From the IMG/VR virus record IMGVR_UViG_2698536518_000010: DNA of 20,335 nt; one strand, 5' to 3'. The position numbers and the translations under genes are program-made. The notes beneath the pieces are model-generated. The model did not search any database, had not been told where the DNA came from, and worked only from the letters and a program-made list of their open reading frames with translations. Every line of letters begins with the position of its first letter. Position 1 is the stretch's first letter. The stretch is from a virus (Duplodnaviria; Heunggongvirae; Uroviricota; Caudoviricetes). Shown here in pieces: positions 1-16,106 of the stretch.

Positions 1-1731
1 TTAGCCTGAGATATATTCATCCGCTGCGTTCTTGATTATTTTTGACCTAACATTTTTAATGTACGGTATTTTTTTCAGATCATCCCTCGAACAGTGAACG
101 ATATCACCCACTTTAGGATAGGTTTCTTTTATTCGGTCGCATATTGCGTTACTAATTGACAAGCAACTAACCGGATCATCAAGAAGTTGTCCTACAATTG
201 ACCTTGTTGGTACAGGTGTCCCACACTTAGGACAAAACTTCGCATCTCCAGGTAACTCAGCGGAACAAGTTTGACACTCATCAGCTGATTCTTTCAATTT
301 TTCTAAAAAACGCTCTAATTCAGAATCTGCTGCGCCAAATTCTTTATAATCAGCGAGAGATAATAGTGTTATTATCTCCCCGAACTTATTAGATACGAAT
401 GCTTTTTCAGTGAAAAGTAATGATAAATTAACCATGTAGCGCTGACCCGATTTTCGATTAGACATCTTCACGGACCCTTGCTTGGAAAGAACACCAGAAT
501 AACAAAGCAAATCTAGAGACAATCTAAGATTTGGAGAAATAACGGGAGGAAGAACAAAAAAAGCAGATTGGGTTTGAGTCTTTTTCTCTCTGTTATTTTT
601 CAATCTAAGCTCAGGGATAATACACTCCCTAAGAATATCAAGTCCAATGCGAACATGGTGAGAATACTTAGGTAATCGTTTTGAAAGCCCTAAATGATAA
701 GGTAATAATTCTTGATTGACATAATCCTGAGTGCAAGTTAAAAGATCTCTTTCAGTATAACCTTTCTCATATACTTTATTAAATAAATGGAGAAATGCTC
801 TAGGGTTTCCGGATGAAAGATGAATACATTGATCTAGCAAATCACCTTTAGCCAATATTCTCTTTTTTGCTGCTCCTTGTGTGACCCGTTTATCTAATAG
901 ATCACGATATAAACGTCGTGTTCGTTCCCGCCCAATATTTCCAGTTTCGTATCCTCCGAGGTTTATCATCATGGCATCTTGACCAACTTCAAAATTTTTA
1001 CCATACGATGTAATTGACGGATATACAGCCGCCTTAACTGCAATTTTACCGCCATGAAGCAATTTAAATATTTCGAAGAATATTTCCTGCTGTTCTGGTA
1101 TAAAGGTATGAGCAGCCTCATCAAATAAAAAAACAATTCTATTAAGTTGGTATTCTTGAATTATCTCCTTGATGATGTCATTTACATAACTTATATCATT
1201 AACCTTATCTAAAAAATCCTCTCCAATTTCATTCAACAATTTATCTGAAGAAGGATCTCTTGATAACCTTTGAAGCAGATGAATTTTAGATTGTAGAGCA
1301 TCTTTCATTCCAGTTATAGTTTTAATCCCAAAAATTCTTTGAAATGGATCACTGCTATTATTGTCACGAATGACATCTAAAAATATCAACTTTTCGTACA
1401 AAGCTTGTAGTAACTTAGCGCTTACCCATATCTGAAATGCATTTTTATTGTCAGCTTTAACCCCTTCCAGCAAAGTACTGGTTTTGAAATTAACATATAC
1501 CCCCACAATCTTTTTAACAGGAAAATCACTATCTAATTCAGCTTCTGCCGCTCTTAGAAGCATAGACTTTCCAATTCCTCTGGCACCCTGAATCAGATGA
1601 GAGCCCGCTATTTTTAGTTTTGCTACAACATCTTTTTCAAACTCACCAAGAACAGCCAGTTGTTTGACCTGTTTCAACTCAAGATCTTCGGTACGTGCTG
1701 CATGTAATAACTCAGTGTCTAACATAGACAT
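1..1731 (-). CDS. P-loop NTPase (AAA_16/STAND-like motifs) with C-terminal zinc ribbon and basic tail; downstream gene of a candidate defence cassette
   Basis: 576-aa ORF. Walker A GARGIGKS (codons at about 1564-1587), Walker B-like VFLFDEAAH, CxxC-x10-CxxC ribbon CQTCSAELPGDAKFCPKCG (about 220-276). TAA stop at 1-3. Start ATG overlaps the upstream stop (TAATG, 1729-1733). AT-rich codon usage. Family is by motif only. Confidence 0.75.
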   Translation of the reverse strand: MSMLDTELLHAARTEDLELKQVKQLAVLGEFEKDVVAKLKIAGSHLIQGARGIGKSMLLRAAEAELDSDFPVKKIVGVYVNFKTSTLLEGVKADNKNAFQIWVSAKLLQALYEKLIFLDVIRDNNSSDPFQRIFGIKTITGMKDALQSKIHLLQRLSRDPSSDKLLNEIGEDFLDKVNDISYVNDIIKEIIQEYQLNRIVFLFDEAAHTFIPEQQEIFFEIFKLLHGGKIAVKAAVYPSITSYGKNFEVGQDAMMINLGGYETGNIGRERTRRLYRDLLDKRVTQGAAKKRILAKGDLLDQCIHLSSGNPRAFLHLFNKVYEKGYTERDLLTCTQDYVNQELLPYHLGLSKRLPKYSHHVRIGLDILRECIIPELRLKNNREKKTQTQSAFFVLPPVISPNLRLSLDLLCYSGVLSKQGSVKMSNRKSGQRYMVNLSLLFTEKAFVSNKFGEIITLLSLADYKEFGAADSELERFLEKLKESADECQTCSAELPGDAKFCPKCGTPVPTRSIVGQLLDDPVSCLSISNAICDRIKETYPKVGDIVHCSRDDLKKIPYIKNVRSKIIKNAADEYISG

Positions 1732-2420
1732 TATAAAACTACCTCACTAGATTTAGGAAATGAAGATAGCACTTCTTTTCTTATCTTATGACGAACAATA
1801 TTGGAATTAATTATCATACCCAAAACAACCTCAGCCAGACCTATGAACCTCTCCCAATCTTCACTTTCAAAAGTGAACTTATTAGGCAAATCAGTTTCAA
1901 ATGAGGTTATTTTTCCATGAACGATATCACTTAATTGTCCATAAATTTTCTGTGCTCTTCTCATATCAATAACACATACTTTCCCTCCTATCTTCTCATT
2001 TTCTGTGAAGTAGTCTATATAGCCTTGATTTGTTATATGCTTCAACATATCACTGAAACTTAAGTCTTCATCATGATTTTTCCAAGAATATACAACATGA
2101 GGCATATCCCAAAGATAAATAGATGCGACACCTAGTTCCAAAACTCTCCTTAGAACAATATTAGCTGGTTTATCTATGGCACAGGCAGAAAGATATAAAG
2201 AAGATGACGTATCAGCAATAATCTCACTAAAAATTTTAATACAAACATCATGATGAACTGATGTTTTCTTTTTATTCAAAATTTCAGCAATCGTGTTAAG
2301 AGTGAAAATTGAGATAATTACTTTATCTAATTTTTTATCTTGTATGCCCTGCCATTCACGAAAGTTACTATTGAACTTATCGCTTAGCATATTAATTATC
2401 TCAGTAGGTGATTTGTTCAT
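1731..2420 (-). CDS. Hypothetical 229-aa protein, upstream partner of the NTPase (possible effector); no recognisable motif
   Basis: 229-aa ORF with stop overlapping the NTPase start by 1 nt (translational coupling). AT-rich. Preceded by AT-rich intergenic region 2421-2520 with AAGGGA upstream of the ATG. Confidence 0.65.
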   Translation of the reverse strand: MNKSPTEIINMLSDKFNSNFREWQGIQDKKLDKVIISIFTLNTIAEILNKKKTSVHHDVCIKIFSEIIADTSSSLYLSACAIDKPANIVLRRVLELGVASIYLWDMPHVVYSWKNHDEDLSFSDMLKHITNQGYIDYFTENEKIGGKVCVIDMRRAQKIYGQLSDIVHGKITSFETDLPNKFTFESEDWERFIGLAEVVLGMIINSNIVRHKIRKEVLSSFPKSSEVVL

Positions 2421-2807
2421 TTATTATGCATATCCCTTGTTTTTATCTGTCAATCAACAAGATAATAAGTATAATTTTATAATACAAGAAAATAAAAAGC
2501 CTTATTGATGTGTTTTATTGCTACTAAAGCGCGCAATGCTCTCCCCAGCAGGCCTGCCCGCTACACAGAGCAGTTTTCATGCAAGTGCATGATAAAAGCC
2601 TATCAGAATCGGCAGTTTTCAACATAAACGCCCACTAGCTACAGAGTGCAATTTTTCGTCATCGGCAATATCAACAACTAAACGCATAAATCAGACAAAC
2701 TGCTACCCGGCTCAATTTTGAGCCGTCTTTTAATCAACGGGTTATCGCCGCAGCATGTCCGGTTTCTTCCACTCGTAAGGCACGGCGTTCTCTCTATGCT
2801 GGTGGCG

Positions 2808-3002
2808 TCAACGGGCTGCCAGTATCGCCGCCGATCGGATGCGGATATGCAGCAAATCTCCTTCATTCGGAGCATGATCTTCTAGCTGCATTGCAGCAGC
2901 TACCACGTCCGCATAATCGGCAAATCTGGCTTTCTTTGGCAATTCGCTAATTCCAGCCACGCTGCGCACTATATCCAGCAAATCGGCTTCGGTGATGGTC
3001 AT
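2808..3002 (-). CDS. Hypothetical small protein (64 aa)
   Basis: ORF with AAGGTG Shine-Dalgarno 6 nt upstream of ATG at 3002. No recognisable domain. Overlapped out of frame by ORF 2678-2875, so it may be a remnant. Confidence 0.4.
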   Translation of the reverse strand: MTITEADLLDIVRSVAGISELPKKARFADYADVVAAAMQLEDHAPNEGDLLHIRIRSAAILAAR

Positions 3003-3033
3003 GGTTTACACCTTAGGAAATCTTAATATCGCA

Positions 3034-3241
3034 GGTTGACACACTTGACACTTTTTCGCGAAAAACCCTGGCATTTCTAAGCATGACAACTTGACACTTT
3101 TCGCGGTTTTCACGGGTTTCTGGCGTGGTAAATATGGCTCAAGGCCAGTAATGGCAGGGTTTACAGCGAGGTTGACACTTTTTCGTGTTCAGAGTGTAAA
3201 GTGCCAACCTGGCAAGCTGCTCAACTTGACACTTTTTGCGG
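3034..3241. repeat. Array of direct repeats with core TTGACACTTTT(T)CGCG (copies at 3034-3060 as a doublet, 3090-3106, 3170-3187, 3225-3241)
   Basis: Read directly: GGTTGACACA-CTTGACACTTTTTCGCG, CTTGACACTTTTCGCGG, GGTTGACACTTTTTCGTG, CTTGACACTTTTTGCGG in the intergenic space between the 3245-3787 and 2808-3002 genes. Confidence 0.7.
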
Positions 3242-3244
3242 CCG

Positions 3245-3769
3245 TTAATGACCTGTTTTTTCCCATGCAGCCAGGGCGTTTAGTCCGGCTTCGCTCCAGT
3301 TATCCAGCTCGTCAGGACAAGCATCAGCCACATAACAGACCTCACGTCGCAGCGTACCAATCACCAGTTCGGCATTCTGCCTGAGATCATATTGCTCGAA
3401 ATAAAACTCAGCATCGCCGTCATCCATCCAAATCCCGCCATCATCAAGAAATTGCACTTCCCAGTCTAATTCCCCGGCTGCATCCAGCACACGTTGCTGT
3501 ATGTCGTCGTCCGTTACTGGCGCAGGGATTTTACCGTCTCTGGCCTTAACTGCTTTCCAGAACTCGCCCCACGTCATTTCCAGCGTTCTTTCTGGCCACA
3601 TTTCAGAAACGGTGTCTTTCCCCTGTGCCGGTGGGCTGTTCCGCTGCTCTGTCGCCTCCACATCAATTTTTTTGCCAGACATGATCACTTCGCCTTTCTC
3701 GATCCAGTCGTAAACTGTCTGGCGGCTTACGCCTTTGTATTTGGCGTATTCGGCTTTACTCATCAACAT
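3245..3769 (-). CDS. HTH (excisionase/MerR-like HTH_17-type) DNA-binding protein with acidic C-terminal region
   Basis: ORF track gives 3245-3787. GAGGTGA Shine-Dalgarno precedes the internal ATG at 3769 (MLMSKAEYAKYKGVSRQTVYDWIEKGE). The VSRQTVYDWI motif resembles the AlpA/Xis-type HTH. Confidence 0.55.
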   Translation of the reverse strand: MLMSKAEYAKYKGVSRQTVYDWIEKGEVIMSGKKIDVEATEQRNSPPAQGKDTVSEMWPERTLEMTWGEFWKAVKARDGKIPAPVTDDDIQQRVLDAAGELDWEVQFLDDGGIWMDDGDAEFYFEQYDLRQNAELVIGTLRREVCYVADACPDELDNWSEAGLNALAAWEKTGH

Positions 3770-3868
3770 GTAACTCACCTCATGCATATACGATAAAAAA
3801 TAATTTCATGCGAAAAGGGAATGCGTTGTGGGTATGGAGGAAAGGGGCAATAACCGCCCCTTACTGAT

Positions 3869-4141
3869 TCAGTTGCGCCAGGATGGCTGGCTAAGCGTGG
3901 TTTTCATTACATCATTGACGACCTGCTTTACGATTTCTGTGTTGGCAGTCGTGCTTTCAACATCAACAAAGCCATAATCGCCAATTTCCACCGTCAGGGA
4001 TTCCAGTTTCTTCCCCAGTGCATCAGGCAACTCTCCACTGAACCGGTGCCGAAGATTTTCCACCAGCAAAGCCCTGAATGCCTCGCTGTTCTCTTTTTTC
4101 TGCCATAGCTGGCGTTTATCCACACTGATATTTAATTTCAC
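3869..4141 (-). CDS. Hypothetical protein (90 aa), GTG start
   Basis: ORF with GTG start overlapping the TGA of the upstream small frame (GTGA at 4138-4141). No recognisable domain. Confidence 0.45.
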   Translation of the reverse strand: MKLNISVDKRQLWQKKENSEAFRALLVENLRHRFSGELPDALGKKLESLTVEIGDYGFVDVESTTANTEIVKQVVNDVMKTTLSQPSWRN

Positions 4142-4305
4142 AGCCTCACCTCTTTAAGTGCCTTATCCATCAGTTGCCGGGCAATAACATGAATCGACGG
4201 TGCCACACCAAGCACAGATTTCTGACGCTTTTCGGCCTGGATACGTTACAGGGCTTCGATCTGCCCCCGGGAAAGTAAAACTGGCTTTACTCCGTGATTT
4301 TTCAT
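4138..4305 (-). pseudogene. Small frame (55 codons) interrupted by an in-frame TAA at codon 20 (plus-strand tta at 4246-4248)
   Basis: ATG at 4305-4303. Translation MKNHGVKPVLLSRGQIEAL-stop-RIQAEKRQKSVLGVAPSIHVIARQLMDKALKEVRL, then TGA overlapping the GTG of the 90-aa gene. Confidence 0.3.
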
Positions 4306-4544
4306 GATGATCCCTTCTGAATGACAATAATTGCAATAAATGAAACAAAAAGCATCAATAAACCAACCTTCGGCACTAAATGCTCTGATTTTTCTGCAAA
4401 GGTATGGTAGATGTTGCTGCATGCAAACATAAAGGAAATAGCAGAAGAAACAGCGGGGAGTGAAAAGGGGAAGTTTTTATAAATACACGATTGTCGCCTC
4501 ACTGCAGGTTAACAGCCACAAACCCCATGATAATAACTTGTTAA

Positions 4545-4868
4545 TTATTTCATCAGATTTTTCATTATTTGCGCGATTGAGTACACAAGCAAAAACTCGG
4601 CAGCCGCAAGAGTATAAAAAACATAGATTCGCTTAGCCCACCGACGATGAAAGAACTCCTCAGCATGACCGAATGTTCGAGATACAAGCCATGCACCTAC
4701 TGCACACAGAGCAGGTGCAATGAGCACAGTTATAAACCAGATTGTGATACCCATCCCATGCCTACTGATAATAGCCATTGGTATTGCAAAAATGAATGTT
4801 AGAGCAGCATTAGCTAATAGAATATCTTTTAAAGTATTTTCAATTAGTTTTTCTAGATTATCTTTCAT
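4545..4868 (-). CDS. Small hydrophobic membrane protein (107 aa, 2-3 predicted TM helices)
   Basis: ORF with hydrophobic stretches (LLANAALTFIFAIPMAII, ITIWFITVLIAPALCAVGAWLV). A G7 tract (4874-4880, minus strand) acts as Shine-Dalgarno 5 nt upstream of the ATG. Confidence 0.55.
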   Translation of the reverse strand: MKDNLEKLIENTLKDILLANAALTFIFAIPMAIISRHGMGITIWFITVLIAPALCAVGAWLVSRTFGHAEEFFHRRWAKRIYVFYTLAAAEFLLVYSIAQIMKNLMK

Positions 4869-4887
4869 CTAATCCCCCCCGTTGAAC

Positions 4888-4920
4888 ATTAATATATAAA
4901 AGCCCCTTACTAAGGGGCTT
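4888..4920 (-). terminator. Rho-independent terminator after the lipoprotein gene
   Basis: 8-bp stem AGCCCCTT/AAGGGGCT (4901-4908 and 4913-4920) with 4-nt loop, followed on the minus strand by a U/A-rich tract (TTATATATT). Confidence 0.5.
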
Positions 4921-4932
4921 TGCACGGATTGT

Positions 4933-6075
4933 TTAAAGGGAACTTTTTTTCGCCCCTTCAATTTCTGCCTGACAAATTTCGTCATTTGTAAATGAGTACT
5001 GCAGATAGACATATCCCTGAGTGGAATTGTTCGCTCTGGCCTCAATAGAGATAGTATCGATATTGTTTTTTAATGGTATTTCTTTTGTTCCCTTCCATGT
5101 GGCAGATAAGAAGCGTTCTTTTTTGTTTAGCCCCCTCATCCAGTCCTGAGGATCTTTCCAAATTGAACCAGCCAGCAAAAAGTCTGTAGTATCAGCCTTT
5201 CCATACAGAGAACTTAAAGAATTACTCAATTCTTCAAACTTGGATTTAAGAGCCAATCCATAGCTATCAGTATCAATATTTTTTCCTAAAGCCCGTATTT
5301 GACATAAACCAGCTTTCGGGGAGATCAGCAAACCATACATTTCAAAATCTGCGTTTTGCTTCGGTAATTTATCAGAAGTATACAGATTCACACTGTCTGG
5401 TAGTGGCTTGAGCTTAGCACCGATCATATCTTCGATGTTTTTCTGTGTAAGACCGGCTTCTAAGCCAAACGGACCATCCGCTGGCGGGAGTAAAGGAAGT
5501 TGCTCTTGGGAATTTTTGGCTGTTACTTCCGTTTCAGTACTGTTTTTTGCGTCATTAGCTTGTACTGATGCCAGCTTAACTTCAGCGAGGCCATACTTGG
5601 CTGTGAGGTACTTTTGCTGCAACATTGCCATGGTCTGCTCTTCAGTGGCAACAGTAGATAATTTTAGTACCTTTATCAGACCACCACTATACTGACGAGC
5701 ATCAGCTTTGGCTTCGTTGATTTTTGCATCTAAGCTGTCAATTTCAGTTTTAATTGAAGCCGCAAGCTCAGGATCAGGTTTTACTCCAGATACAACAACA
5801 TCAATTTTGGCACCTGATTCAATAGCATTAATACGCTGTTCCAAAAGCGCTTTATTAGTTCCTAATATTTCCAGTCTTGCTGTTGTCAGATTTTTTATCA
5901 ACCCACCAGAAAACTGCTGGTCAACTTCCTTAGCTGCTGATATTTCACCTTCCGTTTGCGACAGTTCAGCTTTAAGAGCCGCTACTTCCTGTTTCTGTTC
6001 TGGAGTTAACTCTTCTGGCCCACATCCGGTTAACATTACTATACCGACTAATGTTGCAATTAAAGTTTTATTCAT
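4933..6075 (-). CDS. Lipoprotein (380 aa) with internal repeat motif, function unknown
   Basis: N-terminal signal peptide with lipobox LTGC (MNKTLIATLVGIVMLTGC). Two copies of an xSGGLIKxL-containing segment. Coiled-coil-like composition. Confidence 0.8.
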   Translation of the reverse strand: MNKTLIATLVGIVMLTGCGPEELTPEQKQEVAALKAELSQTEGEISAAKEVDQQFSGGLIKNLTTARLEILGTNKALLEQRINAIESGAKIDVVVSGVKPDPELAASIKTEIDSLDAKINEAKADARQYSGGLIKVLKLSTVATEEQTMAMLQQKYLTAKYGLAEVKLASVQANDAKNSTETEVTAKNSQEQLPLLPPADGPFGLEAGLTQKNIEDMIGAKLKPLPDSVNLYTSDKLPKQNADFEMYGLLISPKAGLCQIRALGKNIDTDSYGLALKSKFEELSNSLSSLYGKADTTDFLLAGSIWKDPQDWMRGLNKKERFLSATWKGTKEIPLKNNIDTISIEARANNSTQGYVYLQYSFTNDEICQAEIEGAKKSSL

Positions 6076-6209
6076 ATCCCTATTCCAAATGAAAATATTC
6101 AGATTAATCTTATCAGGAACCCAGATGCAATTGAATATTCATCTGCTCAGCAACGTAGTAGATTTCCTCAGAAAGCATCAACAAAAAACCAAGAGAATCC
6201 CATCCTCTG

Positions 6210-6497
6210 TTACTGACTACAATTGTTCTTTTTTTGGTATTTCCTGAATGCCTCACCATTGGGCTGATGTAATCCCATCCCGGCATGTGCCCGGCTGATG
6301 GTTTCGCGCATCTCCCCGAAATTATCCTGCCTTGCTGGTGGGCATGCTGCCTTGTGGATACATTCCGCGCGACGTTTTGCCGCCTGTTCCCGTGCCTTGT
6401 CATCATTCGCCAGCATGATGACCTCAGCCCACCGCGCCGCCGCTCTCCGGTACAGACCACGCGCTTCCAGTGCTTCCGCTTTGCTGTCGTGAATCAT
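6210..6497 (-). CDS. PerC-family-like transcriptional regulator (95 aa)
   Basis: Motif KAEALEARGLYRRAAARWAEV resembles the conserved PerC/Pch core as I recall it. 4-nt overlap with the upstream ProQ-like gene. Confidence 0.5.
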   Translation of the reverse strand: MIHDSKAEALEARGLYRRAAARWAEVIMLANDDKAREQAAKRRAECIHKAACPPARQDNFGEMRETISRAHAGMGLHQPNGEAFRKYQKKNNCSQ

Positions 6498-7036
6498 GCG
6501 CCTATTGTCTCCTTTGCTGCCCGGCGCTGGCGTTTGCGCTTCTCATTCAGCGCCACCAGCCGCGTTTCTGCGTCCTGTTGTTCCTGTGGTGTCACCTCGC
6601 CGCACGGCTGGCCTTTCAGGTCGTAGCGTACCCCACCAGCCATTAAGGCGCGGTAATAGCGCGGACACTGCGCATAAGATGCCAGCGTCGCACGCAATGC
6701 CCCTGGCCCGAATGCCAGCCCCCTGACGGCGAGATCCTGCATCAGGTCGTCGAATATCCCCACCTTAAGCGGCTTCAGTGCTTCCCGGCTGAATAAGTCA
6801 GGCCACAACTCAGTGAGGCGGTTAACGCGCCTGCGGTTTTTGCGCTGGCGTTTGGTCATATGCCGCCACGGTGTCGCCCCTGTAGGCTTCTGCTGCGCTT
6901 TCTGGTTACCGGGCATCACTTTATGCGCCGATGTGGTTTTATCCTGCTCCTGTGCCGCCTGCGTCGTTTTCTGTGGCGTGCCGTAAATACCTTTTGGTTT
7001 TCTGTTAATGGTCAGCTTAGTCATGCTTTGCCCCAT
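6494..7036 (-). CDS. ProQ/FinO-domain RNA-binding protein
   Basis: Segment LTELWPDLFSREALKPLKVGIFDDLMQDL...YYRALMAGGVRYDLKGQPCGEVTPQEQQDAETRL aligns by eye with the E. coli ProQ N-terminal FinO-like domain (LAERFPHCF...PLKIGIFQDL...RVDLDGNPCGEL). Likely true start is ATG at 7024 (GGGG upstream). Confidence 0.8.
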   Translation of the reverse strand: MGQSMTKLTINRKPKGIYGTPQKTTQAAQEQDKTTSAHKVMPGNQKAQQKPTGATPWRHMTKRQRKNRRRVNRLTELWPDLFSREALKPLKVGIFDDLMQDLAVRGLAFGPGALRATLASYAQCPRYYRALMAGGVRYDLKGQPCGEVTPQEQQDAETRLVALNEKRKRQRRAAKETIGA

Positions 7037-7045
7037 CGTTACAAC

Positions 7046-7380
7046 TGTCTACCAACTGTCTACCGATATAATTGATTGATTTATTTAATGTTATTAACAC
7101 ATAACAAAAAAACAATCTGCAAACTGTCTACCAACGGTCTACCGCATTAATACATTGATAATTAATGATTTTTACTAAATGGTAGACAGTGTAGACAGTT
7201 AAAAGAGAAATTTAAAAAATACCCCCTTAACTATCTGTTTTTTATATACCCCCCGTGGTTTAGGAATATAGAAATAACTGTCTACCTCTCTACCACATTG
7301 AAAATATCTTTATAATTCAAAATATTAATTGGTAGATGGTTGGTAGAGGGTTAAGTGAATCTGTCTACCAACCGTCTACC
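7046..7380. repeat. Iteron-type origin-like region: at least 8 direct copies of (T/G/C)GTCTACC and 4 inverted copies (GGTAGA) separated by AT-rich spacers
   Basis: Direct octamers at 7046-7053, 7057-7064, 7125-7132, 7136-7143, 7279-7286, 7287-7294, 7362-7369, 7373-7380. Inverted copies at 7181-7188, 7190-7197, 7331-7336, 7342-7347. Lies immediately 3' of the primase/helicase gene. Confidence 0.75.
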
Positions 7381-7407
7381 TTTACGTTTCAGCTTATAAA
7401 TTTCGTA

Positions 7408-9213
7408 TTATGTTCTGTCGTTAATCCCTGTAGCTGCTGGCAACCAGCCATCAGCATCATCATCTAACAGAACATTTGTTATCACTCGCCCTTTATCCGG
7501 GCCTTTAGTGCATTTAGCCCGCTTATACTCCTTTCCGTATTCCGCCATAGCTCCTGGCATATCAGTACCAAAGCGTGTCAGTGATACTGGTTTTCCCAGG
7601 CCATGCGCTGACATATAGGCTAAATAAGCATGATACAGGTATCGCCTCGGGCTAAATGGCACTATTTCCGCATTGCCCACCATCATTCCTTCACATTTAA
7701 CCAACGACATCAGATAGCCGCAAAAGTCCACCAGTGAATCACCTTCGCGCTTTATCAACAGCGCTTCTTCTGATTTTTGCTGCTCATAAAGTAGTCTTTT
7801 AGCTTCGTCCTGGTCGGTAAATCGTGTTAGCAAATGGCGAATCACTACCGCCAGTTCGCCTTCTATCTTTTCCGCCAGCATGGGATCGCGTTCGTTCTCC
7901 GGTACGACCTCAGAGAAATTAAATATCACCCTACGACGCGAGATCCCCCCGCTTCGGTCACTGAATGACATGGCGTTATTGTTTACCGCAAGCACTACTG
8001 CCGGAATACGTGTGGAGTAGGGGGCTTTATGTTTCGGATCAATTGCCACCTTGTCGCCGCCAGTAATTGCCTTAATTCCTGCACCATCGCCAGCGTAGCG
8101 AGTCATATCCGGCATGATAATCAGCGAAAAGCCAACTACTAACGCGCGTTCCCTTGCGTCTTCCAGAGCCTTCATGCTTGCCGATACTGTGTTGGCCTTA
8201 CCCGCCAGCATGGTACAAATCTCCGCCATCACACTTTTACCGCTTCCGCCCGGCCCCGTTACCTCAAGGAATAACTGCCAGTCGTACCGGTTCGCCAGTA
8301 CCATGAATAATGCCGCCAGTACGCGATCCGCTTTACGAGCATTATCCGCCACCGAACGACGCAACCACTTCCAGAAATTCGGCGCATGTGTTGCCAGCGT
8401 TTCCCCCTCTTCTGGCGGGCTGAACGGTAATTCACTGGCATTTAACAACCAGTCATTTTTGTTGTGTTCCCGAAAATTTCCTGTCCTGATATCAAAAACA
8501 CCGTTACTGAACCCAATAAGATTTCTGTCCGCTCCCCCCATAACAGGTAGACTCAATTTCATTGTCTCTACGGCAAATTTAATGGCGTTTTGCGAATAAC
8601 TAATTTCGGCATCAATAAAAATCTTCGCCATAGACCGCTGGAGTTCCTTATCAGATACAGGCTCCCAAACAATTCCGTTGTAATGGTGAACTACATCAGA
8701 ATCATCATTTATCGCCAGTGCTCCTCCATAATGTTCAAGTAACACTTCCCCTCTCTGGCTGGCTCCCATCTGATTTAATGCAGGCTTGGGTAGACCACTA
8801 TTTTTTGTAGCTAATTTCATCACTGAAACTTCCCCGTGCTCAGCCTGTTCGCGGATCCGTTGCAGGTAGTCGCGCCAGTTCTCCGGTTCCTGGTCGGTGA
8901 TACCTTTGTATAATTTCGCCTCCTGTACGCCAGCCAGCGCCAGCTTTTCAGCGATAGTATTGATCTGGATTGGCTCTATCTCCCCCGCGATATAGACACG
9001 CGCAAAACGGCGTTTCTCGTCAATAATGCGGATATTCGCCAGGTCTGCCAGTTGCTTTGGCCCCAGGTAAACAGGAGGCACGTTATCGCCGTGTTTTCGT
9101 CCTTCACTTTCAATCCAGTGTTGAGCATGGGCGTAAGCATCCGTCCCGGCAAAAATGATTACCTCAGTGAATTTATCCTTCGGCTGATATTTTAGACTCG
9201 GTGCGTTTTTCAC
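7408..9213 (-). CDS. Replicative primase/helicase, P4 alpha-like (SF3 helicase P-loop GPGGSGKS)
   Basis: 601-aa ORF. Walker A VTGPGGSGKSV and Walker B-like LIIMPDM. Start overlaps upstream gene (ATGA). Followed by the iteron region. Confidence 0.85.
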   Translation of the reverse strand: MKNAPSLKYQPKDKFTEVIIFAGTDAYAHAQHWIESEGRKHGDNVPPVYLGPKQLADLANIRIIDEKRRFARVYIAGEIEPIQINTIAEKLALAGVQEAKLYKGITDQEPENWRDYLQRIREQAEHGEVSVMKLATKNSGLPKPALNQMGASQRGEVLLEHYGGALAINDDSDVVHHYNGIVWEPVSDKELQRSMAKIFIDAEISYSQNAIKFAVETMKLSLPVMGGADRNLIGFSNGVFDIRTGNFREHNKNDWLLNASELPFSPPEEGETLATHAPNFWKWLRRSVADNARKADRVLAALFMVLANRYDWQLFLEVTGPGGSGKSVMAEICTMLAGKANTVSASMKALEDARERALVVGFSLIIMPDMTRYAGDGAGIKAITGGDKVAIDPKHKAPYSTRIPAVVLAVNNNAMSFSDRSGGISRRRVIFNFSEVVPENERDPMLAEKIEGELAVVIRHLLTRFTDQDEAKRLLYEQQKSEEALLIKREGDSLVDFCGYLMSLVKCEGMMVGNAEIVPFSPRRYLYHAYLAYMSAHGLGKPVSLTRFGTDMPGAMAEYGKEYKRAKCTKGPDKGRVITNVLLDDDADGWLPAATGINDRT

Positions 9214-9500
9214 TTCTTACCTCCCGCAACCAACATTGCCCGGATTTTTTTAATATTCGTGGCTGCACGTCTCGCCACTGCCTGTTGTTTGTTTTCCACC
9301 AGAATAAAATCACGATCAAACTGACGGCGCGGCATTACGCAGTCATATTCGTAAGCCTCACGGCGGTAGGTGATATTGCCTGGCGTAACGTGACGAATAA
9401 CCACCCGTCCCCCGCGTCTGGTGTCCCGGGAAATATCACCGGGGCGGATTTCAGGCCGAGAGAGGCCGCTGGCAGTAAAGCCAGAATTTTTCTTTTTCAT
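9210..9500 (-). CDS. Hypothetical basic protein (96 aa) in the replication operon
   Basis: ORF whose stop overlaps the primase start. No recognisable domain. Confidence 0.5.
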   Translation of the reverse strand: MKKKNSGFTASGLSRPEIRPGDISRDTRRGGRVVIRHVTPGNITYRREAYEYDCVMPRRQFDRDFILVENKQQAVARRAATNIKKIRAMLVAGGKK

Positions 9501-9504
9501 GGTT

Positions 9505-9705
9505 TTATTTTCCTGTCAGCAGTTCCGGTTTTATTTCCGCACGAATACAAAGTTCAGAAAAAAATTCAGGAGAACCAACAATCTCATTACTTTTCAGTCG
9601 GCATTGTGATTTCACTTTCCCTTTATCCAGGTAAACCAGTACGCGTCCGGTGAAATCATCTGGCACATTAAGCACTACGGGTACATGCGCTTCATGATTA
9701 TGCAT
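9505..9705 (-). CDS. Hypothetical protein (66 aa), short paralogue of the 9924-10289 gene
   Basis: GGAGGA Shine-Dalgarno. N-terminus MHNH...DDFTGRVLV parallels MHNL...EKFTGQLLV of the larger gene. Confidence 0.5.
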   Translation of the reverse strand: MHNHEAHVPVVLNVPDDFTGRVLVYLDKGKVKSQCRLKSNEIVGSPEFFSELCIRAEIKPELLTGK

Positions 9706-9931
9706 GGCTTACATCCTCCGTGAATTTTCTTCTGTAACGCGTCTCTGCCACATATTCCGCATAGTCCGACGCAATACTAAGAATCATTTCACCCTCTGAC
9801 TTGTAGCCACTGGTATTGATAAGAAAATATGCAGCTTTCATCATGTCAGCAACGCTCAACAATGCGCCCGCTGCATCTTCCGGTGCGCCATCAAATTCCC
9901 GTTTCAGGGAATTAAAACGATCATCACGCAT
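9698..9931 (-). CDS. Hypothetical protein (77 aa)
   Basis: ORF overlapping neighbours by 8 nt at both ends (operon-style packing). Confidence 0.45.
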   Translation of the reverse strand: MRDDRFNSLKREFDGAPEDAAGALLSVADMMKAAYFLINTSGYKSEGEMILSIASDYAEYVAETRYRRKFTEDVSHA

Positions 9932-10289
9932 GTTTACCCCCCTGAATGACCTGATAACCGCAACTGGTCAGCAACTCGATAAATTCCGGCAGTGTGCCGA
10001 AACAGCAATCATCACGCAGCCGTTCGCGGGATACTTCAACGCCGTTTTCGTAGTGACTCACCATACGCCCGGTAAAATGCAGATCATCATCGTGATGGCT
10101 CGTTGACGGCTTAATCAGTCGCGCACGTTCCGCCAGTTCCAGCAATGCTTCAACGCTTCCGGCAATTGCACCATCCGGCAGGTGGTAATTACGCACTATG
10201 CGCCCGTTCTCCACATTGACCAGCAACTGCCCGGTAAATTTCTCGTCAAACTGAATGCTGTTAAGGTCAGAAATTGACAGGTTATGCAT
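9924..10289 (-). CDS. Hypothetical protein (121 aa from SD-supported ATG at 10289; ORF track start 10307)
   Basis: AGGAGGT Shine-Dalgarno 6 nt upstream of ATG at 10289. Paralogous N-terminus to the 9505-9705 product. Confidence 0.5.
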   Translation of the reverse strand: MHNLSISDLNSIQFDEKFTGQLLVNVENGRIVRNYHLPDGAIAGSVEALLELAERARLIKPSTSHHDDDLHFTGRMVSHYENGVEVSRERLRDDCCFGTLPEFIELLTSCGYQVIQGGKHA

Positions 10290-10506
10290 GGTGCACCTCC
10301 TGCACATCAGCCATGATAATTTTTCCGGCCTTATCCAGTGCCTGATCGGCTTTTAGCTGCACAAATGCTAAATAATGGGAGATGCATTCTGATTCTCTGG
10401 CTGCGTGTTTATGCGCCACACCAGCGATAGCAGAAATCTCAATAAGTGAATCCATCAGCGTTTTGATAGCGTCTACCGCTGCATCAGGCCATGTTGCATT
10501 ACACAT
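10282..10506 (-). CDS. Hypothetical protein (74 aa)
   Basis: ORF with ATGTGTAA start/stop overlap with the upstream 67-aa gene. Confidence 0.4.
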   Translation of the reverse strand: MCNATWPDAAVDAIKTLMDSLIEISAIAGVAHKHAARESECISHYLAFVQLKADQALDKAGKIIMADVQEVHHA

Positions 10507-10702
10507 GTTCCACCTCCTGGCGAATACGGGCTGCGAATACCATCACGCAGCCATCAGGAGATTGCTGGCGTGCTTCCTGTTCGCTGGTGGCCTCGATGTG
10601 AATTACGCGCGGTTGTGCCGTGCTCAGGGCGATAAAACGCCAGATGTATTTATTCAGGTTGTGCGAGTCCCGCCCTTGCGGGTGTGTGGTATGATTTCTC
10701 AT
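10499..10702 (-). CDS. Hypothetical protein (67 aa), first gene of the leftward operon
   Basis: C-terminal part of the 435-codon ORF-track frame. ATG at 10702 preceded by GAGGT Shine-Dalgarno. Lies just downstream of the operator cluster. Confidence 0.45.
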   Translation of the reverse strand: MRNHTTHPQGRDSHNLNKYIWRFIALSTAQPRVIHIEATSEQEARQQSPDGCVMVFAARIRQEVEHV

Positions 10703-10798
10703 AGCTACCTCGATACTCTTGCTATCGTTGGTGGTTAGACGCCCTGCATGTGTGCCACCACTGCGGGGCGTTGTCGTTTCTGCACCTTGCATCAACAA

Positions 10799-10853
10799 GG
10801 TGTTGAACACCAATTTAAGCCTAGGTGTTAAACACGTCAAGTGTTGAACACTT
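10799..10853. promoter_or_regulatory. Three copies of an 11-bp perfect palindrome GTGTT(G/A)AACAC (10800-10810, 10825-10835, 10841-10851); candidate operator cluster in a divergent promoter region
   Basis: Read directly. Third copy overlaps a TTGAAC -35-like hexamer with CATACT 17 bp downstream. Sits between the leftward operon and the rightward small RHH gene. Confidence 0.6.
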
Positions 10854-10901
10854 ATTTTTTTTCCTGCATACTGCATTTGTTTTTTGTAAGGGGTACACAA
10901 C

Positions 10902-11081
10902 ATGGCGACAAAAGCAGTAAACGCAAAATCACAAACAGTTGCGGCAAGGGTTCCGCATGAAGTTATGAACAATGTTGAGGCGGTAAAAATGCCTGGTGAA
11001 AGTACAGGGCAGTTTGTAACAGCAGCATTAAAGCGAGAAGTTGAATACCGCCAGCGCCGCAAGGCCAAAGAACAGGAGTAA
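10902..11081 (+). CDS. Ribbon-helix-helix (Arc/CopG-like) small DNA-binding protein, 59 aa (below ORF-track cutoff)
   Basis: ATG at 10902 with AAGGGG upstream. Translation MATKAVNAKSQTVAARVPHEVMNNVEAVKMPGESTGQFVTAALKREVEYRQRRKAKEQE fits a beta-strand/helix/helix pattern. Confidence 0.45.
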   Translation: MATKAVNAKSQTVAARVPHEVMNNVEAVKMPGESTGQFVTAALKREVEYRQRRKAKEQE

Positions 11082-11798
11082 CCATCACCAGCGCCGTGGT
11101 GTGAGGAACTACGGTGCATCGTTTTACAGGGCTGCGCCATGACCAACAAAGAATCAACCAATACACCATCACCGGCACGGAAAAGACAGCGCAGAAAGAT
11201 AGCGTACGAGCATGAGTCAAACAGATTCGCGCCCTGTGCGTTTATCCTTGAGAAATTCCTTAAAGAGTACAGGCGCACAAAAATGGGGTCGCATACCTGG
11301 AAAACATCGCGGCATGGCAATGTTAAAGAGCAGGAATAGCCCACCAGCAAGCCAGCATATTCACCATAATGACCCTCAGTTAAACATAGAGTCATTGGTG
11401 CAAAGCTGACACATTGCCCACCAGCCGCAAATCTGGCATTGTTGGCGATGCGTTCAAGTATGTAGCTTTCCCACTGGCGGCCCTCTGCGGTCGCCTTTGT
11501 TTTATCCAGAACGAAATCAGACATCAGATTGATCAGCACCTGGCGACCTGACAAAATCGCATCAGTCGCGCCACCAGCAAAATTTTTTGCTTTCCGGACA
11601 GTGTGACCAACGACATTTTGCAGCAAAATATTCTGCATTTCTGGCGTGCTGTAGTAACGGTGATCAGCGCCTTCACTCTGTGCGACCACAACGCTATAAT
11701 CTGCCTCGTAGACAGTAAGCAATATGGCGCAGTAGGCTATTCGTTCACAAAGGCGCTCCGGCAACGGGGCGCTTTCTCTTTTTGTAACGGTCAGAGCG

Positions 11799-12599
11799 TT
11801 ACACATGGCTGTTTTCCTCCATGCGACGGGCTAACCAACGCTGCGAAAGACGAATTAATTCAGCCTTCCGCTGGTGGTAGTCCTGGCCTAACTCAATCAG
11901 CGTGATATTGCTCTGCTCAAGGTAAGAAAGGTGCTCAAGCTGCAACGTGCTCATGTGGTCGCGTGGTTCGCCTGTAATGCCGTTCGCCAGTGCCCACTGT
12001 TTTGCAGTCATGCCACCCAGTACGATACGCGCCAGCATGTTCGCTTCCGTGGTGTAGTGGTGCTGGAGTGTGTTTTTACCCAGTTCAGCCCGGTACGCCT
12101 CCAGCGCGGCACACATTGGCTTAAAGTAGCTGGCAACTGTGATACGGGCTTTCAGTTCCCGGCGTAACGCTGCGGAACGAACAGGCGCAACCTTGTGTAG
12201 CTCCTCCTCGCATTTGATAAAGTACTGGCGAACGGCGCGGCCCTGTTCGGTACGTTCGACCATCGCCAGTTCTTTCGCCATGTTCACTGTGATGATGTAC
12301 TCAAGAGCGGTTTGCTGGCGAGATTTTGCGCTCACCGGATCGGGTCGGCTCAAATATTCAACAACCTCATAATCCACGCCTTCCGTGAACCCGTATTCTT
12401 CAATGCGCCCCTTGATCCACGAACGGAAAACGCGCCCTACACCTAACGCCTTATGTAACGCTCTGGCGCTAACAATAGTGGTTTCACTCCCGCCAATAAC
12501 GCCGGAAATAATCGGGATAATTTCGCCGAAATTTTGCAGATTCTGGTTTTCAGGCCGAACGAAGCCCCGCCCCTGTACGGGCGTTTTTGGAAATTTCAT
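11799..12599 (-). CDS. Phage antirepressor-like protein (ANT/KilAC-type motif)
   Basis: 266-aa ORF. Segment ITVNMAKELAMVERTEQGRAVRQYFI resembles the conserved antirepressor core as I recall it. Confidence 0.6.
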   Translation of the reverse strand: MKFPKTPVQGRGFVRPENQNLQNFGEIIPIISGVIGGSETTIVSARALHKALGVGRVFRSWIKGRIEEYGFTEGVDYEVVEYLSRPDPVSAKSRQQTALEYIITVNMAKELAMVERTEQGRAVRQYFIKCEEELHKVAPVRSAALRRELKARITVASYFKPMCAALEAYRAELGKNTLQHHYTTEANMLARIVLGGMTAKQWALANGITGEPRDHMSTLQLEHLSYLEQSNITLIELGQDYHQRKAELIRLSQRWLARRMEENSHV

Positions 12600-12676
12600 A
12601 AAAACTCCTGCTATCGAATTAAGTTACTTTTATTTGCTGGTGGATAGCTGGGGGAAATAGCCCCGTAGCCATTTAA

Positions 12677-12874
12677 TCAGGTAGCTGTTCCGCGTGATTC
12701 CGCAATACGCTGATTAATCCACTCGTCAATTTCACTCTCAACGAAAGCAATAGCTCGCGAGCCAATTTTAACTGATGCAGGAAATTTACCTTGCCCCATA
12801 AGGCGATAAATCCATGCCTTGCTATATCCAGTTCTACGCTGAACTTCTGTTAAACGAATAAGCGTATTTGACAT
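12677..12874 (-). CDS. alpA: AlpA/Vis-family transcriptional regulator / excisionase-like protein
   Basis: 65-aa ORF MSNTLIRLTEVQRRTGYSKAWIYRLMGQGKFPASVKIGSRAIAFVESEIDEWI, typical AlpA-type HTH. Located two genes from the integrase. Confidence 0.85.
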   Translation of the reverse strand: MSNTLIRLTEVQRRTGYSKAWIYRLMGQGKFPASVKIGSRAIAFVESEIDEWINQRIAESRGTAT

Positions 12875-12943
12875 ATATTTACCTCATAACGTCTACTCAA
12901 TTTGACGAGGTAATCCTGGCACAGAAATAACGAATATTTTCAT

Positions 12944-13086
12944 ACCCTCAGGCCTAATGGTTACCGGAAGGAAATTAACCCTAAGGGTGATGGTAATCGG
13001 GAGGAAATCTACCCTAAGGGTGATGGTAAAATTGACGGGGAAGATAAAAAAATACCCTCAGGGTAACAGTAAATCACCCTCAGGGT
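12944..13086. promoter_or_regulatory. Repeated palindrome ACCCT(A/C)AGGGT (12978-12988, 13011-13021, 13054-13064, 13076-13086, plus half-site near 12944-12952) upstream of alpA
   Basis: Read directly. First two copies are followed by GATGGTAA. Lies between the stop of the 267-aa gene and the alpA start. Confidence 0.55.
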
Positions 13087-13101
13087 ATGCGGTATGGTGC
13101 G

Positions 13102-13905: not shown

Positions 13906-14027
13906 ACCTCAGCGTCCTCTACTGTAGTGGCTGTACCAGTCCGTCGAGGTGTACGGATTTTCGGGAGCGACCCTAGACACAGCCTTTTCTTTCGTCGCTC
14001 AAAGTCTACTACTGTATACGCAACCAG

Positions 14028-15242
14028 TCATCCACATTTTCCGAACTTGCCATGCACCACGTTACCGCCATGTTCGAGCGAATCCATATAGTCGGCGTAC
14101 CACTGGAGCATCTCGCGCCGCCCGTCCAGATATTGCGCATGATTGTACGTGCCACGAATTGAGTTCTTATCAACGTGTGCAAGCTGCGTTTCTATCCACG
14201 CGGTGTTATAGCCCTGCTCATGTAAAATCGTGCTCATGGTGTGCCGGAATCCATGACCAGTAACCTTTCCGTTATAGCCGATGCGTTTAAATACTTGGTT
14301 TATGCTAGCCTCGCTCATTGTTTTCCTTGGATCATTACGGCCGGGAAACATAAGCGGATAATTACCAGTTAATTCTTTAATCTGCCCAATAAGAGAAAGA
14401 GCCTGCTTAGACAAAGGCACCACATGAGGGCGACGCATTTTCATCCGTGAAGCAGGTATCTCCCAGATAGCCTTGTTGAGATCGATTTCATCCCATAATG
14501 CACCGCGCAGTTCGCCAGTTCGCAAACCAGTGATAATCAGTAGACGAGCCGCCATAACAACCAATGCACTTCCTGAGTAACTGGACAATGCCTTGAAAAA
14601 ATCAGGCAATTCTTTGGCTGTGAGGAAAGGATAATGATTAGATTCATGGCCTTGCATCGCGCTAGTAAGATCTGGGGCAGGGTTATACTCTGCGCGACCA
14701 GTGACTATTGCATAGCGGAAAACTTCCCCGCACCGCTGCCTCACTTTTTTGGCTTTTTCTGTAGCACCGCGCCCCTCGATGCGTCGCAGCACATTCAGAA
14801 GTTCAAGTGGTTTGATTTCGGCGATTGGTTTTTTGCCAATGTAAGGGAACACATCTTTGTTGAAGGCTTCGAGGATATCTGAAGCATAACCAGCAGACCA
14901 TTTTTTTAATTTGCTGCTGTGCCACTCAAGGGCAATATCTTTGAAGGTATTGTTTAACTGCGTTTCCCGGGCAATCTTTTCCTCTCGTTTCGCTTCCATC
15001 GGATCGATACCCCCAGCGATACCCCTTTTAGCTTCTTCACGTTTTGCACGAGCATCAGCCAAGGTAACTTCAGGATACACACCTAGTGCTAACAGCTTCT
15101 CTTTACCAGCTACACGATATTTAAAGCGCCAGTATTTTCCTCCACTAGGTTTTACCAGGAGATACAGACCACCACCATCAGCCAGCTTGTAAGCCTTCTC
15201 TTTTGGCTTGGCAGTGTCTATTTGACGGGCATTGAGTTTCAC
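14028..15242 (-). CDS. int: Tyrosine recombinase, P4-type integrase
   Basis: 404-aa ORF with GTG start preceded by GGAGGT. Catalytic signature residues (RTGELR, HGFRHT, SIRGTYNHAQY). Adjacent to the tRNA 3' fragment. Confidence 0.9.
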   Translation of the reverse strand: MKLNARQIDTAKPKEKAYKLADGGGLYLLVKPSGGKYWRFKYRVAGKEKLLALGVYPEVTLADARAKREEAKRGIAGGIDPMEAKREEKIARETQLNNTFKDIALEWHSSKLKKWSAGYASDILEAFNKDVFPYIGKKPIAEIKPLELLNVLRRIEGRGATEKAKKVRQRCGEVFRYAIVTGRAEYNPAPDLTSAMQGHESNHYPFLTAKELPDFFKALSSYSGSALVVMAARLLIITGLRTGELRGALWDEIDLNKAIWEIPASRMKMRRPHVVPLSKQALSLIGQIKELTGNYPLMFPGRNDPRKTMSEASINQVFKRIGYNGKVTGHGFRHTMSTILHEQGYNTAWIETQLAHVDKNSIRGTYNHAQYLDGRREMLQWYADYMDSLEHGGNVVHGKFGKCG

Positions 15243-15408
15243 TTGGGGGTACCTCCACTAAACCGAACAGCAAATACCCCCAAAAGTCCCCCCAATTGAC
15301 TGTAGATTTTGGGGTACTTAAGTAGACGTCAAAAGACTAAAAGGGGCGATAACATGCGGATTATAAGAAGTTTTTAAATACTTGAGTAGACTTGGGGAGA
15401 CGTTAGAA

Positions 15409-15454
15409 TGGTGCCGATAATAGGAGTCGAACCTACGACCTTCGCATTACGAAT
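15409..15454 (-). tRNA. 3' fragment (about 46 nt, anticodon loop to CCA) of tRNA-Thr(CGU); att core repeat, not a complete tRNA
   Basis: Minus strand reads ATTCGTAATGCGAAGGTCGTAGGTTCGACTCCTATTATCGGCACCA. The 5' half (acceptor and D arms) is absent, since the upstream sequence cannot pair with the TATCGGC acceptor strand. Confidence 0.6.
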
Positions 15455-15811
15455 TATAAGAATCCGCTTCTAATTCAAAGTATTACCCCATCAACACTGC
15501 GCTCACACGTCCCACCACATCAAAACATGTAAAGCCTTGCAAGCCATTGTGAGGCCTTATGTGTCTCAGTTTTGTCCCACCTTGTATTATGACTTGCATA
15601 GCCAATGAAGATAAAGGTGACGACAAACAGCGCAGCAGTCTTCTTTTCTTTCACACTTTCCCCAATCAGCATACATAGCAGTCCTAGAGACAGTGGCGTA
15701 AAGTCATGGATGATCGGTGGAAGGAGGCGCTAATCCTTTCATACAAAAAATATGTAAAATCAATAACGGCTGTAAATCATTCAATACTCGCCCTATCGGA
15801 AGTTCACCAGC

Positions 15812-15852
15812 CAACCGCAGCACGTTCTTGCATACGACGTGGCTGCGGTTTC
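15812..15852. repeat. About 40-bp imperfect-hairpin element, copy A (homologous to 19744-19786)
   Basis: AACCGCAGCACGTTCTTGCATACGACGTGGCTGCGGTTTCA versus AACCGCAGCACGATCTTCTTGCATACGACGTGCTACGGTTTCA. Contains inverted arms GCAGCACG/CGTGGCTGC. Confidence 0.6.
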
Positions 15853-16030: not shown

Positions 16031-16106
16031 CCCTTAAGTTCCTAGCCGCTTATCTATAACTATGGAAAAATGTTAACCCTGACTGTATGCTAACAAAGGG
16101 ATGTAT

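Follow-up and report, generated by a model that had tools for sequence, protein, structure and literature searches.

A ProQ/FinO-family protein encoded beside the iteron origin of a phage-inducible chromosomal island of Escherichia coli

FinO-domain proteins form one of the three main classes of bacterial small RNA (sRNA) chaperones, and, to our knowledge, those characterised are encoded either in core genomes (ProQ, RocC, and NMB1681) or on plasmids (FinO, FopA, and PcnR). Here we describe a gene of this family in a 20,335-nucleotide (nt) stretch of DNA, IMG/VR record IMGVR_UViG_2698536518_000010 (the window below is this whole stretch at its full length), which carries an EcCICFT073-type phage-inducible chromosomal island (PICI) of Escherichia coli. 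Among the plasmid-borne members, FopA of pCol1B9 controls the replication of its own plasmid via the Inc/repZ RNA (PMC7491321), and PcnR of IncI2 plasmids controls that of its own plasmid via the repR leader (PMC8053102). A review of the FinO/ProQ family places plasmid- and phage-encoded homologues in an "eclectic" branch (PMC9977716), a ProQ/FinO-like regulator was reported on episomal satellites in a marine-phage study (PMC13230959), and a 2026 survey of Enterobacter satellites counts PerC and a ProQ/FinO-like chaperone, without experimental work on them, among the accessory genes of PICIs (PMC13612085). The literature search turned up no work on the function of a FinO protein encoded by a PICI.

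The gene and the parts of its product that bear on its identity are as follows.
6494..7036, minus strand: coding sequence of the ProQ/FinO-family protein as delimited in the initial annotation, 180 amino acids (aa) (open reading frame [ORF] list; Pfam PF04352)
6854..7024, minus strand: basic, Thr/Gln/Lys-rich N-terminal extension, residues 5-61, with the motif MTKLTINRKPKGIY; predicted to be disordered
6521..6835, minus strand: FinO/ProQ domain, residues 68-172 (Pfam PF04352)
6692-6694, 6656-6658, and 6626-6628, minus strand: codons of the predicted pocket residues R115, Y127, and R137, respectively, placed by alignment to the N-terminal domain (NTD) of ProQ

The reading frame listed at 6494..7036 on the minus strand is present and intact over its 180 aa. 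The start used by RefSeq/PGAP and by almost all homologues is the second ATG, at 7024, which gives a product of 176 aa; this is probably the true start, the protein then being WP_032194282.1, and the sequence context offers a strong Shine-Dalgarno sequence at neither the first ATG nor 7024. A locus of E. coli SCU-316 that is 100% identical to the gene has been annotated by PGAP.

The initial annotation had recognised a ProQ/FinO domain by eye and had proposed a profile search for it. That search recovered the domain far beyond chance: Pfam PF04352 (ProQ/FINO) matched residues 68-172 with an E value of 2.4e-23 and a score of 82.6 bits, the gathering score being 27, covering 104 of the 109 profile positions (5-108), which places the protein in the family. 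PF04352 is the sole Pfam domain in the protein, and the chain stops 8 residues past the match. When PDB sequences were searched with HMMER, only FinO-domain proteins were matched at E<1e-6, namely, the E. coli ProQ NTD (5nb9; 1e-11), NMB1681, FinO (1dvo), RocC, and the Legionella ProQ homologue 6s10; the single weaker match, 8xks (E=0.0038), is an unrelated protein. The same picture was obtained from an AlphaFold2 model built from 18 homologues, in which residues 56-179 are well folded, with a predicted local distance difference test (pLDDT) score of about 90, and in which helices span residues 62-77, 94-105, 111-122, 125-132, and 150-179 and strands span residues 136-138 and 144-147. All of the top 27 Foldseek matches of this model in the PDB are FinO-domain structures, with RocC, FinO, and NMB1681 as the best. 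The modelled structure is that of a FinO fold, i.e., a helical bowl with a two-stranded beta-hairpin.

In ProQ and RocC, pocket residues hold the base and the 3′ U-tail of an intrinsic-terminator hairpin. Substitution of R58, Y70, and R80 of ProQ abolishes the binding of all seven RNAs tested (PMC10168233), and in the HMMER alignment to the ProQ NTD these three residues correspond to R115, Y127, and R137 of the island protein. Y127 and R137 are invariant across the homologues and also in the comparison with FinO and FopA, and three further residues of ProQ are kept as well (K35 as K91, G37 as G93, and R69 as R126). By alignment, the concave pocket typical of the family, a Tyr and an Arg plus an Arg of helix 3, is conserved here.

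The protein carries a long N-terminal extension that had been described as basic and Gln-rich, a fair description given that residues 5-61 have a pI of 11.2, with 13 K+R against 2 D+E, and contain 8 Q, 10 T, and 5 P; Thr and Lys are as enriched as Gln. In the AlphaFold2 model, residues 7-53 are predicted to be disordered (pLDDT of about 40, below 50). The arm opens with the motif MTKLTINRKPKGIY, which is retained in homologues of only 40-50% identity and aligns, as KLTINRKP, with TLSLKKKP at the N-terminus of a plasmid FinO. The strand-annealing activity of FinO resides in its N-terminal region, and the extension appears to be no oddity but a parallel to that region. Beyond the first ~40 residues, which they share with the island protein, two database proteins, P0162 and P0167, have unrelated sequence; these chimeras probably arose by a recombination or assembly event at the low-complexity linker.

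Pairwise ratios of nonsynonymous to synonymous substitutions (dN/dS), computed against eight homologous genes, were 0.13-0.27 over the FinO domain and 0.04-0.50 over the N-terminal arm; because of these values, the domain and the arm alike are under purifying selection. Altogether, the product is very probably an RNA-binding FinO-domain protein, and its architecture is FinO-like, with a basic and flexible arm at the N-terminus, a FinO fold, and a C-terminal helix that is basic.

Compared to FinO itself (1dvo), the island protein has the same fold (Foldseek E=2.4e-6; root-mean-square deviation [rmsd] of 1.9 Å over 102 columns), and the two share a basic N-terminal arm, the FinO domain, a C-terminal helix, a comparable size, and a gene on a mobile element. 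The NCBIfam FinO model (PRK13754) is matched over nearly its full length, residues 35-175 aligning with model positions 46-178 of 186; however, the identity is about 24-28% and the score is 58.6 bits against a cut-off of 136, so that the protein is not FinO sensu stricto. Unlike plasmid finO, the island gene lies outside any tra operon, with no FinP or traJ in the window, and it is chromosomal and satellite-borne, never being found on plasmids in E. coli. FopA and PcnR (the latter compared by description) are likewise small basic FinO-domain proteins of mobile elements, and, as theirs bear on replication, the island gene sits in a replication module. BLASTP aligns FopA over the FinO domain alone (112 residues, 32% identity), its N-terminal region being unrelated, which leaves the island protein outside the FopA branch. 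Unlike the plasmids of FopA and PcnR, the island uses a primase-helicase with iterons for its replication, and the window yielded neither an Inc/CopA-like antisense RNA nor a rep leader.

No solved structure matches the sequence better than the ProQ NTD (5nb9), with E=1e-11 and about 33% identity across 106 residues. Unlike ProQ, the island protein is without the linker and the Tudor-like C-terminal domain and has an N-terminal extension instead; its score of 56.1 bits against an equivalog cut-off of 127 sets it apart from ProQ sensu stricto, and ProQ is encoded by a core gene whereas the island gene is accessory. The best structural match is RocC of Legionella (7rgu/7rgt, with the RocR terminator), with a TM-score of up to 0.84 normalised to the target and an rmsd of 2.3 Å; the RocC complex serves as a structural model for the recognition of a hairpin and its 3′ tail. 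RocC differs in that it regulates competence, is chromosomally encoded, and has both a long C-terminal region and a known partner RNA, and its identity to the island protein is 27%. Of the 1.84 billion cluster representatives in a protein library, 1900 matched at E<=1e-3 and only 7 at E<=1e-30. Judged by these comparisons, the protein belongs to a narrow, separate satellite clade within the large FinO family and not to FinO, FopA, or ProQ proper.

The features that define the element around the gene are listed here in descending order of position.
15409-15454: partial tRNA-Thr, a 46-nt 3′ fragment (core of the attachment site, att), following the integrase
14028..15242, minus strand: tyrosine integrase
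13916..13983, minus strand: int-alpA RNA motif (Rfam RF02996; 45.5 bits against a gathering score of 35.8, E=1.1e-6)
12677..12874, minus strand: AlpA regulator (Pfam Phage_AlpA, E=2.4e-19)
9210..9500, minus strand: DUF4222 gene, which overlaps the start of the primase gene and is a conserved companion of the replication module
7408..9213, minus strand: primase-helicase, the pri-rep of the island (D5_N / DUF5906 / Pox_D5; P4-family primase C-terminal domain)
7037..7407, no strand: iteron-type replication origin, the 371-nt gap between the primase and ProQ/FinO genes
6210..6497, minus strand: PerC-family regulator (Pfam PF06069, E=8.8e-31)
4899..4921, minus strand: strong intrinsic terminator closing the icd...pri-proQ-perC-lipoprotein unit (fold z=-4.6)

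Published criteria for PICIs (PMC6092414) require an integrase at a specific att site, AlpA, pri-rep with an iteron origin on its immediate 3′ side, and a main gene string in one orientation; genes for phage structure and lysis are to be absent. The element has the corresponding gene content (int, AlpA, primase, iterons, and the partial tRNA-Thr att core), only a weak TerS-like match was found when the island was tested for phage genes, and the element is an EcCICFT073-type PICI of E. coli. Positions 1-15454 of the window are 99.8% identical to the thrW island of E. coli SCU-316. The genes run in the order int, int-alpA RNA, a 267-aa ORF, AlpA, AntA/AntB antirepressor, Icd-like, small ORFs, DUF4222, primase-helicase, iteron origin, ProQ/FinO, PerC, a 380-aa lipoprotein, and terminator; from int to the lipoprotein, all listed genes except ylcI are on the minus strand. 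Identity with EcCIMP1, a published PICI at the same thrW site, was considered and rejected, as EcCIMP1 is a different element without ProQ.

With EcCICFT073, the prototype Gram-negative PICI, the island shares the backbone of int, AlpA, an opposite-strand YlcI/YnfO gene, an Icd-like gene, small ORFs, DUF4222, primase, iteron origin, and PerC. The two differ in that EcCICFT073 carries an 85-aa ORF and SSB (single-stranded DNA-binding protein) in place of ProQ/FinO, their primases are 44% identical, and their att sites and cargo are not the same. Because EcCICFT073 has the same backbone without the gene, the ProQ/FinO gene is an accessory module, dispensable for the PICI backbone.

The proximity of the gene to an origin, also proposed initially, is borne out by the 371-nt gap at 7037-7407, which contains 12 CTGTCTACC-type iterons in both orientations, arranged as six pairs that flank A+T-rich cores. 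Ten of the 12 are within one mismatch, a count reached in none of 100 shuffles, and the gap is 69% A+T, its cores 81-89% A+T. This layout agrees with that of the published PICI origin, in which two iteron sets surround an A+T-rich region immediately 3′ of pri-rep (PMC6092414). The ProQ/FinO gene is co-oriented with the primase and lies behind the origin in the rightward gene string of the island; it adjoins the origin because PICI gene order places the replication module there. On its other side, the perC ATG overlaps the ProQ/FinO stop codon (ATGA), with an AAGGAG Shine-Dalgarno sequence within the 3′ end of the ProQ/FinO gene, and by this arrangement the two genes are predicted to be translationally coupled. 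PICI-encoded PerC homologues have been tested solely on LEE (locus of enterocyte effacement) reporters, with mixed results (PMC11773190).

The same neighbourhood is seen in relatives of the gene. Among 24 loci compared, all 8 enterobacterial loci of the satellite clade have a primase-helicase as their closest large upstream gene, and the distant FinO loci have a housekeeping gene there. ProQ/FinO and PerC are adjacent in 10 related loci, and the arrangements vary: primase - SSB - ProQ - PerC in Salmonella, primase - 85 aa - SSB - PerC - ProQ, DUF927 primase - ProQ - PerC - ... - TerS, and, as the commonest variant, DUF927 - SSB - ProQ - 138-aa ORF, while in Serratia oryzae and Erwinia tracheiphila the gene stands behind the primase without PerC. 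In related islands, the gene is thus always in the replication/post-origin module (primase, origin, with or without SSB, with or without PerC), and this module is its robust association.

The gene is also widespread. Of 5426 complete E. coli genomes, 328 gave a megablast match to the ProQ-PerC segment and 1159 (21%) were found by sensitive blastn to have relatives of the gene, with up to nine copies per genome and 1637 places in total, all of them chromosomal. Identity among the relatives within E. coli ranges from 54 to 98%; truncated and chimeric copies exist in databases, and some copies lie in degraded islands. Plasmid homologues are all <40% identical, save one mislabelled chromosome, and phage genomes gave 4 weak tblastn matches only, which points to a satellite or island gene and not a typical phage gene. 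Every E. coli relative among the matches listed is annotated "ProQ/FINO family protein," so that the identification is already standard annotation in RefSeq.

The initial annotation had pointed out that FinO-family proteins of plasmids chaperone antisense RNAs controlling transfer or replication. It had suggested that the island may use an RNA-based circuit of its own, for example an immunity or replication antisense RNA, or that the protein may interfere with the sRNAs of host or phage, and it had called for a search of the island for structured antisense RNAs. An Rfam scan of the window, at the gathering score and at E<=5, returned int-alpA only and no FinP, CopA/Inc, C4, or IsrK. Conserved counter-strand hairpins were seen, and since they also occur in ProQ-less EcCICFT073, none is tied to the protein. 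The hairpins and the related loci in sibling islands are as follows.
11727-11810, plus strand: conserved block with an 11-bp hairpin at 11750-11775 and a T-tract, at the 3′ end of antA (fold and conservation)
11406-11505, plus strand: block B, with the candidate ~55-nt counter-transcript at 11449-11503 as its core; conserved in 8 PICIs including EcCICFT073
11414-11419, 11437-11442, and 11476-11495, plus strand: parts of block B, i.e., a -35 hexamer TTGCCC, a -10 hexamer CATTGT, and, after a variable body, a 7-bp GC hairpin followed by a TTTGTTTT tail
11082-11135, plus strand: conserved block with a hairpin at 11091-11117 and a T-tract
L003 2242-2430 and L053 1065-1758: IsrK/C4 loci in sibling PICIs

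Between antA and the Icd operon there is about 0.7 kb without a convincing coding signal and with three conserved blocks, each of which has a hairpin and a T-tract on the plus strand, opposite the main operon; EcCICFT073 carries the same conserved non-coding blocks. The blocks at 11727-11810 and 11082-11135 are 82-93% identical in islands with differing flanking genes and may be terminators serving the ylcI unit on the opposite strand, or else sites through which transcription driven by AlpA has to read; the hairpin at 11750-11775 is a candidate counter-strand, possibly bidirectional, terminator. In block B, the -10 hexamer varies among islands yet stays promoter-like (CATTGT, TATTCT, and TATGAT), and on the plus strand all pairs of the hairpin (100%) are intact in eight islands; it shows one compensatory change, GC>CG, and two changes of AU>GU, which on the other strand would be A·C mismatches. 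A shuffle control for this covariation was modest, 68 of 500 shuffles equalling it; the G·U pairs and the one compensatory change support the plus strand, and the counter-transcript is a lead only. A search for trans targets of the body of the candidate counter-transcript, covering all mRNA windows and start regions of the island, returned its own cis complement only. All of these counter-strand RNA candidates are located between the AlpA module and the replication operon. Judging from their form, a hairpin with a U-rich tail, the counter-strand hairpins and the operon terminator at 4899-4921 are plausible candidate ligands of the FinO type.

Several other candidates were rejected. An antisense terminator-like hairpin within the gene (6816-6832, plus strand) has a 5-bp stem, a structure found at 1 site against 1.5 expected by chance, and an in-gene antisense RNA has a fold z of 0.02, its sequence being dictated by conserved KNRRRVNRL codons. 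A possible antisense RNA over the 5′ end of antA (12519-12592, plus strand), with a weak promoter and a 5-bp hairpin, is unstructured (z=-0.18). A 435-codon ORF at 10499..11806 on the minus strand was considered as a target of the counter-strand RNAs and is spurious, since no coding periodicity is seen outside ylcI and icd. This ORF is antisense to the YlcI/YnfO gene. Other PICIs show its translation as "conserved" (46-59%), but this is an artefact that arises because third positions of the two strands coincide, and the only real part of the ORF is the 3′ end of the Icd-like gene at 10499-10702.

ProQ-bearing sibling PICIs of Escherichia albertii and Salmonella have IsrK and C4 upstream of the Icd-like gene, with two copies of each in Salmonella, a placement like that in the immI region of phage P1. 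RNA-based control thus exists in this island family, uncoupled from ProQ.

A modest balance of probability favours a chaperone of FinO architecture that is a PICI accessory gene product and tunes the expression or copy number of its own island via terminator-type RNAs. On this proposal, the protein would be made only when the island is induced, driven by AlpA, and replicating; its R115/Y127/R137 pocket would bind the 3′ ends of one or a few terminator-type RNAs, and its basic arms would stabilise an RNA or help sense-antisense pairing. The outcome would be a tuning of island gene expression or copy number, as FinO, FopA, and PcnR do for plasmids, with the operon 3′ terminator at 4899-4921 or counter-strand RNAs ending at 11091-11117, 11476-11495, and 11750-11775 as the most plausible ligands. 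Because uncontrolled replication of EcCICFT073 harms the host (PMC6092414), a brake on replication would be useful. That the main targets are the RNAs of the island itself is a tentative proposal that falls a little short of probable.

Several observations weigh against this proposal. K54 and R62 of ProQ, which aid the binding of the hairpin stem, are replaced by P111 and A119. C4 and IsrK occur in only some ProQ-bearing islands and not in the island of the window, conserved counter-strand elements are also present in ProQ-less EcCICFT073, and no RNA co-occurs specifically with the ProQ/FinO gene among the islands compared. The similarity of ProQ is untied to the primase type, with 75% identity beside a DUF927 primase against 58% beside a D5_N primase, and because ProQ similarity does not follow primase type, tight co-evolution with the replicase is disfavoured. 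In addition, the timing of expression is deduced from gene order only.

It is unlikely that the protein acts in trans on RNAs of the helper phage or the host, serving interference, induction timing, or host takeover, for example by sequestering or stabilising phage antisense or terminator RNAs or by competing with host ProQ. Each characterised FinO protein of a mobile element has a cognate RNA on its own element, the sequence gives no pointer to a phage target, and dN/dS well below 1 in all comparisons shows no sign of an arms race, even though the diversity of the family within E. coli is what would be expected for genes in conflict. Trans action would fit an optional, cargo-like module that is absent from EcCICFT073, as interference and accessory genes are, and for which the island has no specific RNA; FopA and FinO, moreover, bind chromosomal or foreign RNAs besides their cognate one (PMC7491321; PMC9977716). 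A more specific and quite improbable scheme would have the FinO-type chaperone work with the ~55-nt counter-transcript, or with other counter-strand terminator RNAs, as an RNA brake or timer, or else capture ProQ-dependent RNAs of the helper phage or host in trans.

The constant position of the gene in the primase/origin/SSB neighbourhood, here abutting the iterons, would also suit a replication accessory that acts on single-stranded DNA or primer RNA at the origin together with primase and SSB and is not a post-transcriptional regulator. This is very unlikely, as structured RNA with a 3′ tail is the only ligand that the FinO domain is known to recognise (PMC9977716), EcCICFT073 is without the gene and its pri-ori region was tested alone for plasmid maintenance (PMC6092414), and SSB and ProQ often co-occur, so that ProQ is no substitute for SSB. 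Although many chromosomally integrated FinO homologues erode (reviewed in PMC9977716), and truncated or chimeric database copies and copies in degraded islands exist here too, a passenger gene that remains from an ancestral plasmid or phage and is without function or decaying is hardly credible for an intact ORF with domain dN/dS of 0.13-0.27, invariant pocket residues, a conserved position, predicted translational coupling to PerC, and a presence in 21% of complete E. coli genomes.

The remainder of the window was surveyed as well, and two further features are listed for completeness.
16101-17315: type II restriction endonuclease
17350-18825: Dcm-like methyltransferase
These two genes belong to a separate type II restriction-modification unit that lies beyond the tRNA-Thr fragment in the stretch 15409-20335; because a partial tRNA-Thr is followed by such a separate unit, islands are arrayed in tandem at thrW, with the PICI as the outer one. 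Between int and the ORF that first follows it downstream, the int-alpA RNA immediately precedes the Shine-Dalgarno sequence of that ORF. The last gene of the ProQ-PerC transcription unit (4933-6075, minus strand) encodes a predicted 380-aa lipoprotein with the lipobox LTGC, which had no match in Pfam, NCBIfam, PHROG, or PADLOC. Further along, 3245-3787 (minus strand) encodes a 180-aa protein with an N-terminal HTH_17 domain and a weak match to small terminases (phrog_57, E=1.8e-6). Islands of Serratia and Erwinia have a counterpart, conserved at 55-59%, downstream of their FinO gene, and the protein may be a TerS-like packaging factor. Positions 1-2420 (minus strand) hold a 229-aa ORF and, overlapping it, the gene of an ORC/CDC6-like AAA ATPase that has a zinc ribbon at its C-terminus and is listed as 576 aa from the window edge. 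This distal cargo may be an uncharacterised defence pair; PADLOC gave no defence-system match for ProQ/FinO or the neighbouring cargo, including the ATPase and the 229-aa ORF.

The satellite clade described here adds to the core-genome FinO-domain proteins (ProQ, RocC, and NMB1681) and the plasmid-borne ones (FinO, FopA, and PcnR), and it means that many natural E. coli isolates carry FinO-domain proteins besides the ProQ that laboratory strains have. A role in regulating the replication or induction of the satellite would extend the copy-number paradigm of plasmids to PICIs, and action on RNAs of the host or helper would confound or enrich the biology of ProQ in wild strains. Should the brake, timer, or trans-capture scheme hold, it would constitute the first RNA-chaperone layer in the interplay of satellite, helper, and host, present in about a fifth of E. 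coli genomes. The annotation is well founded and holds no surprise, and its main value is as a pointer to a widespread second FinO-domain protein in natural E. coli.

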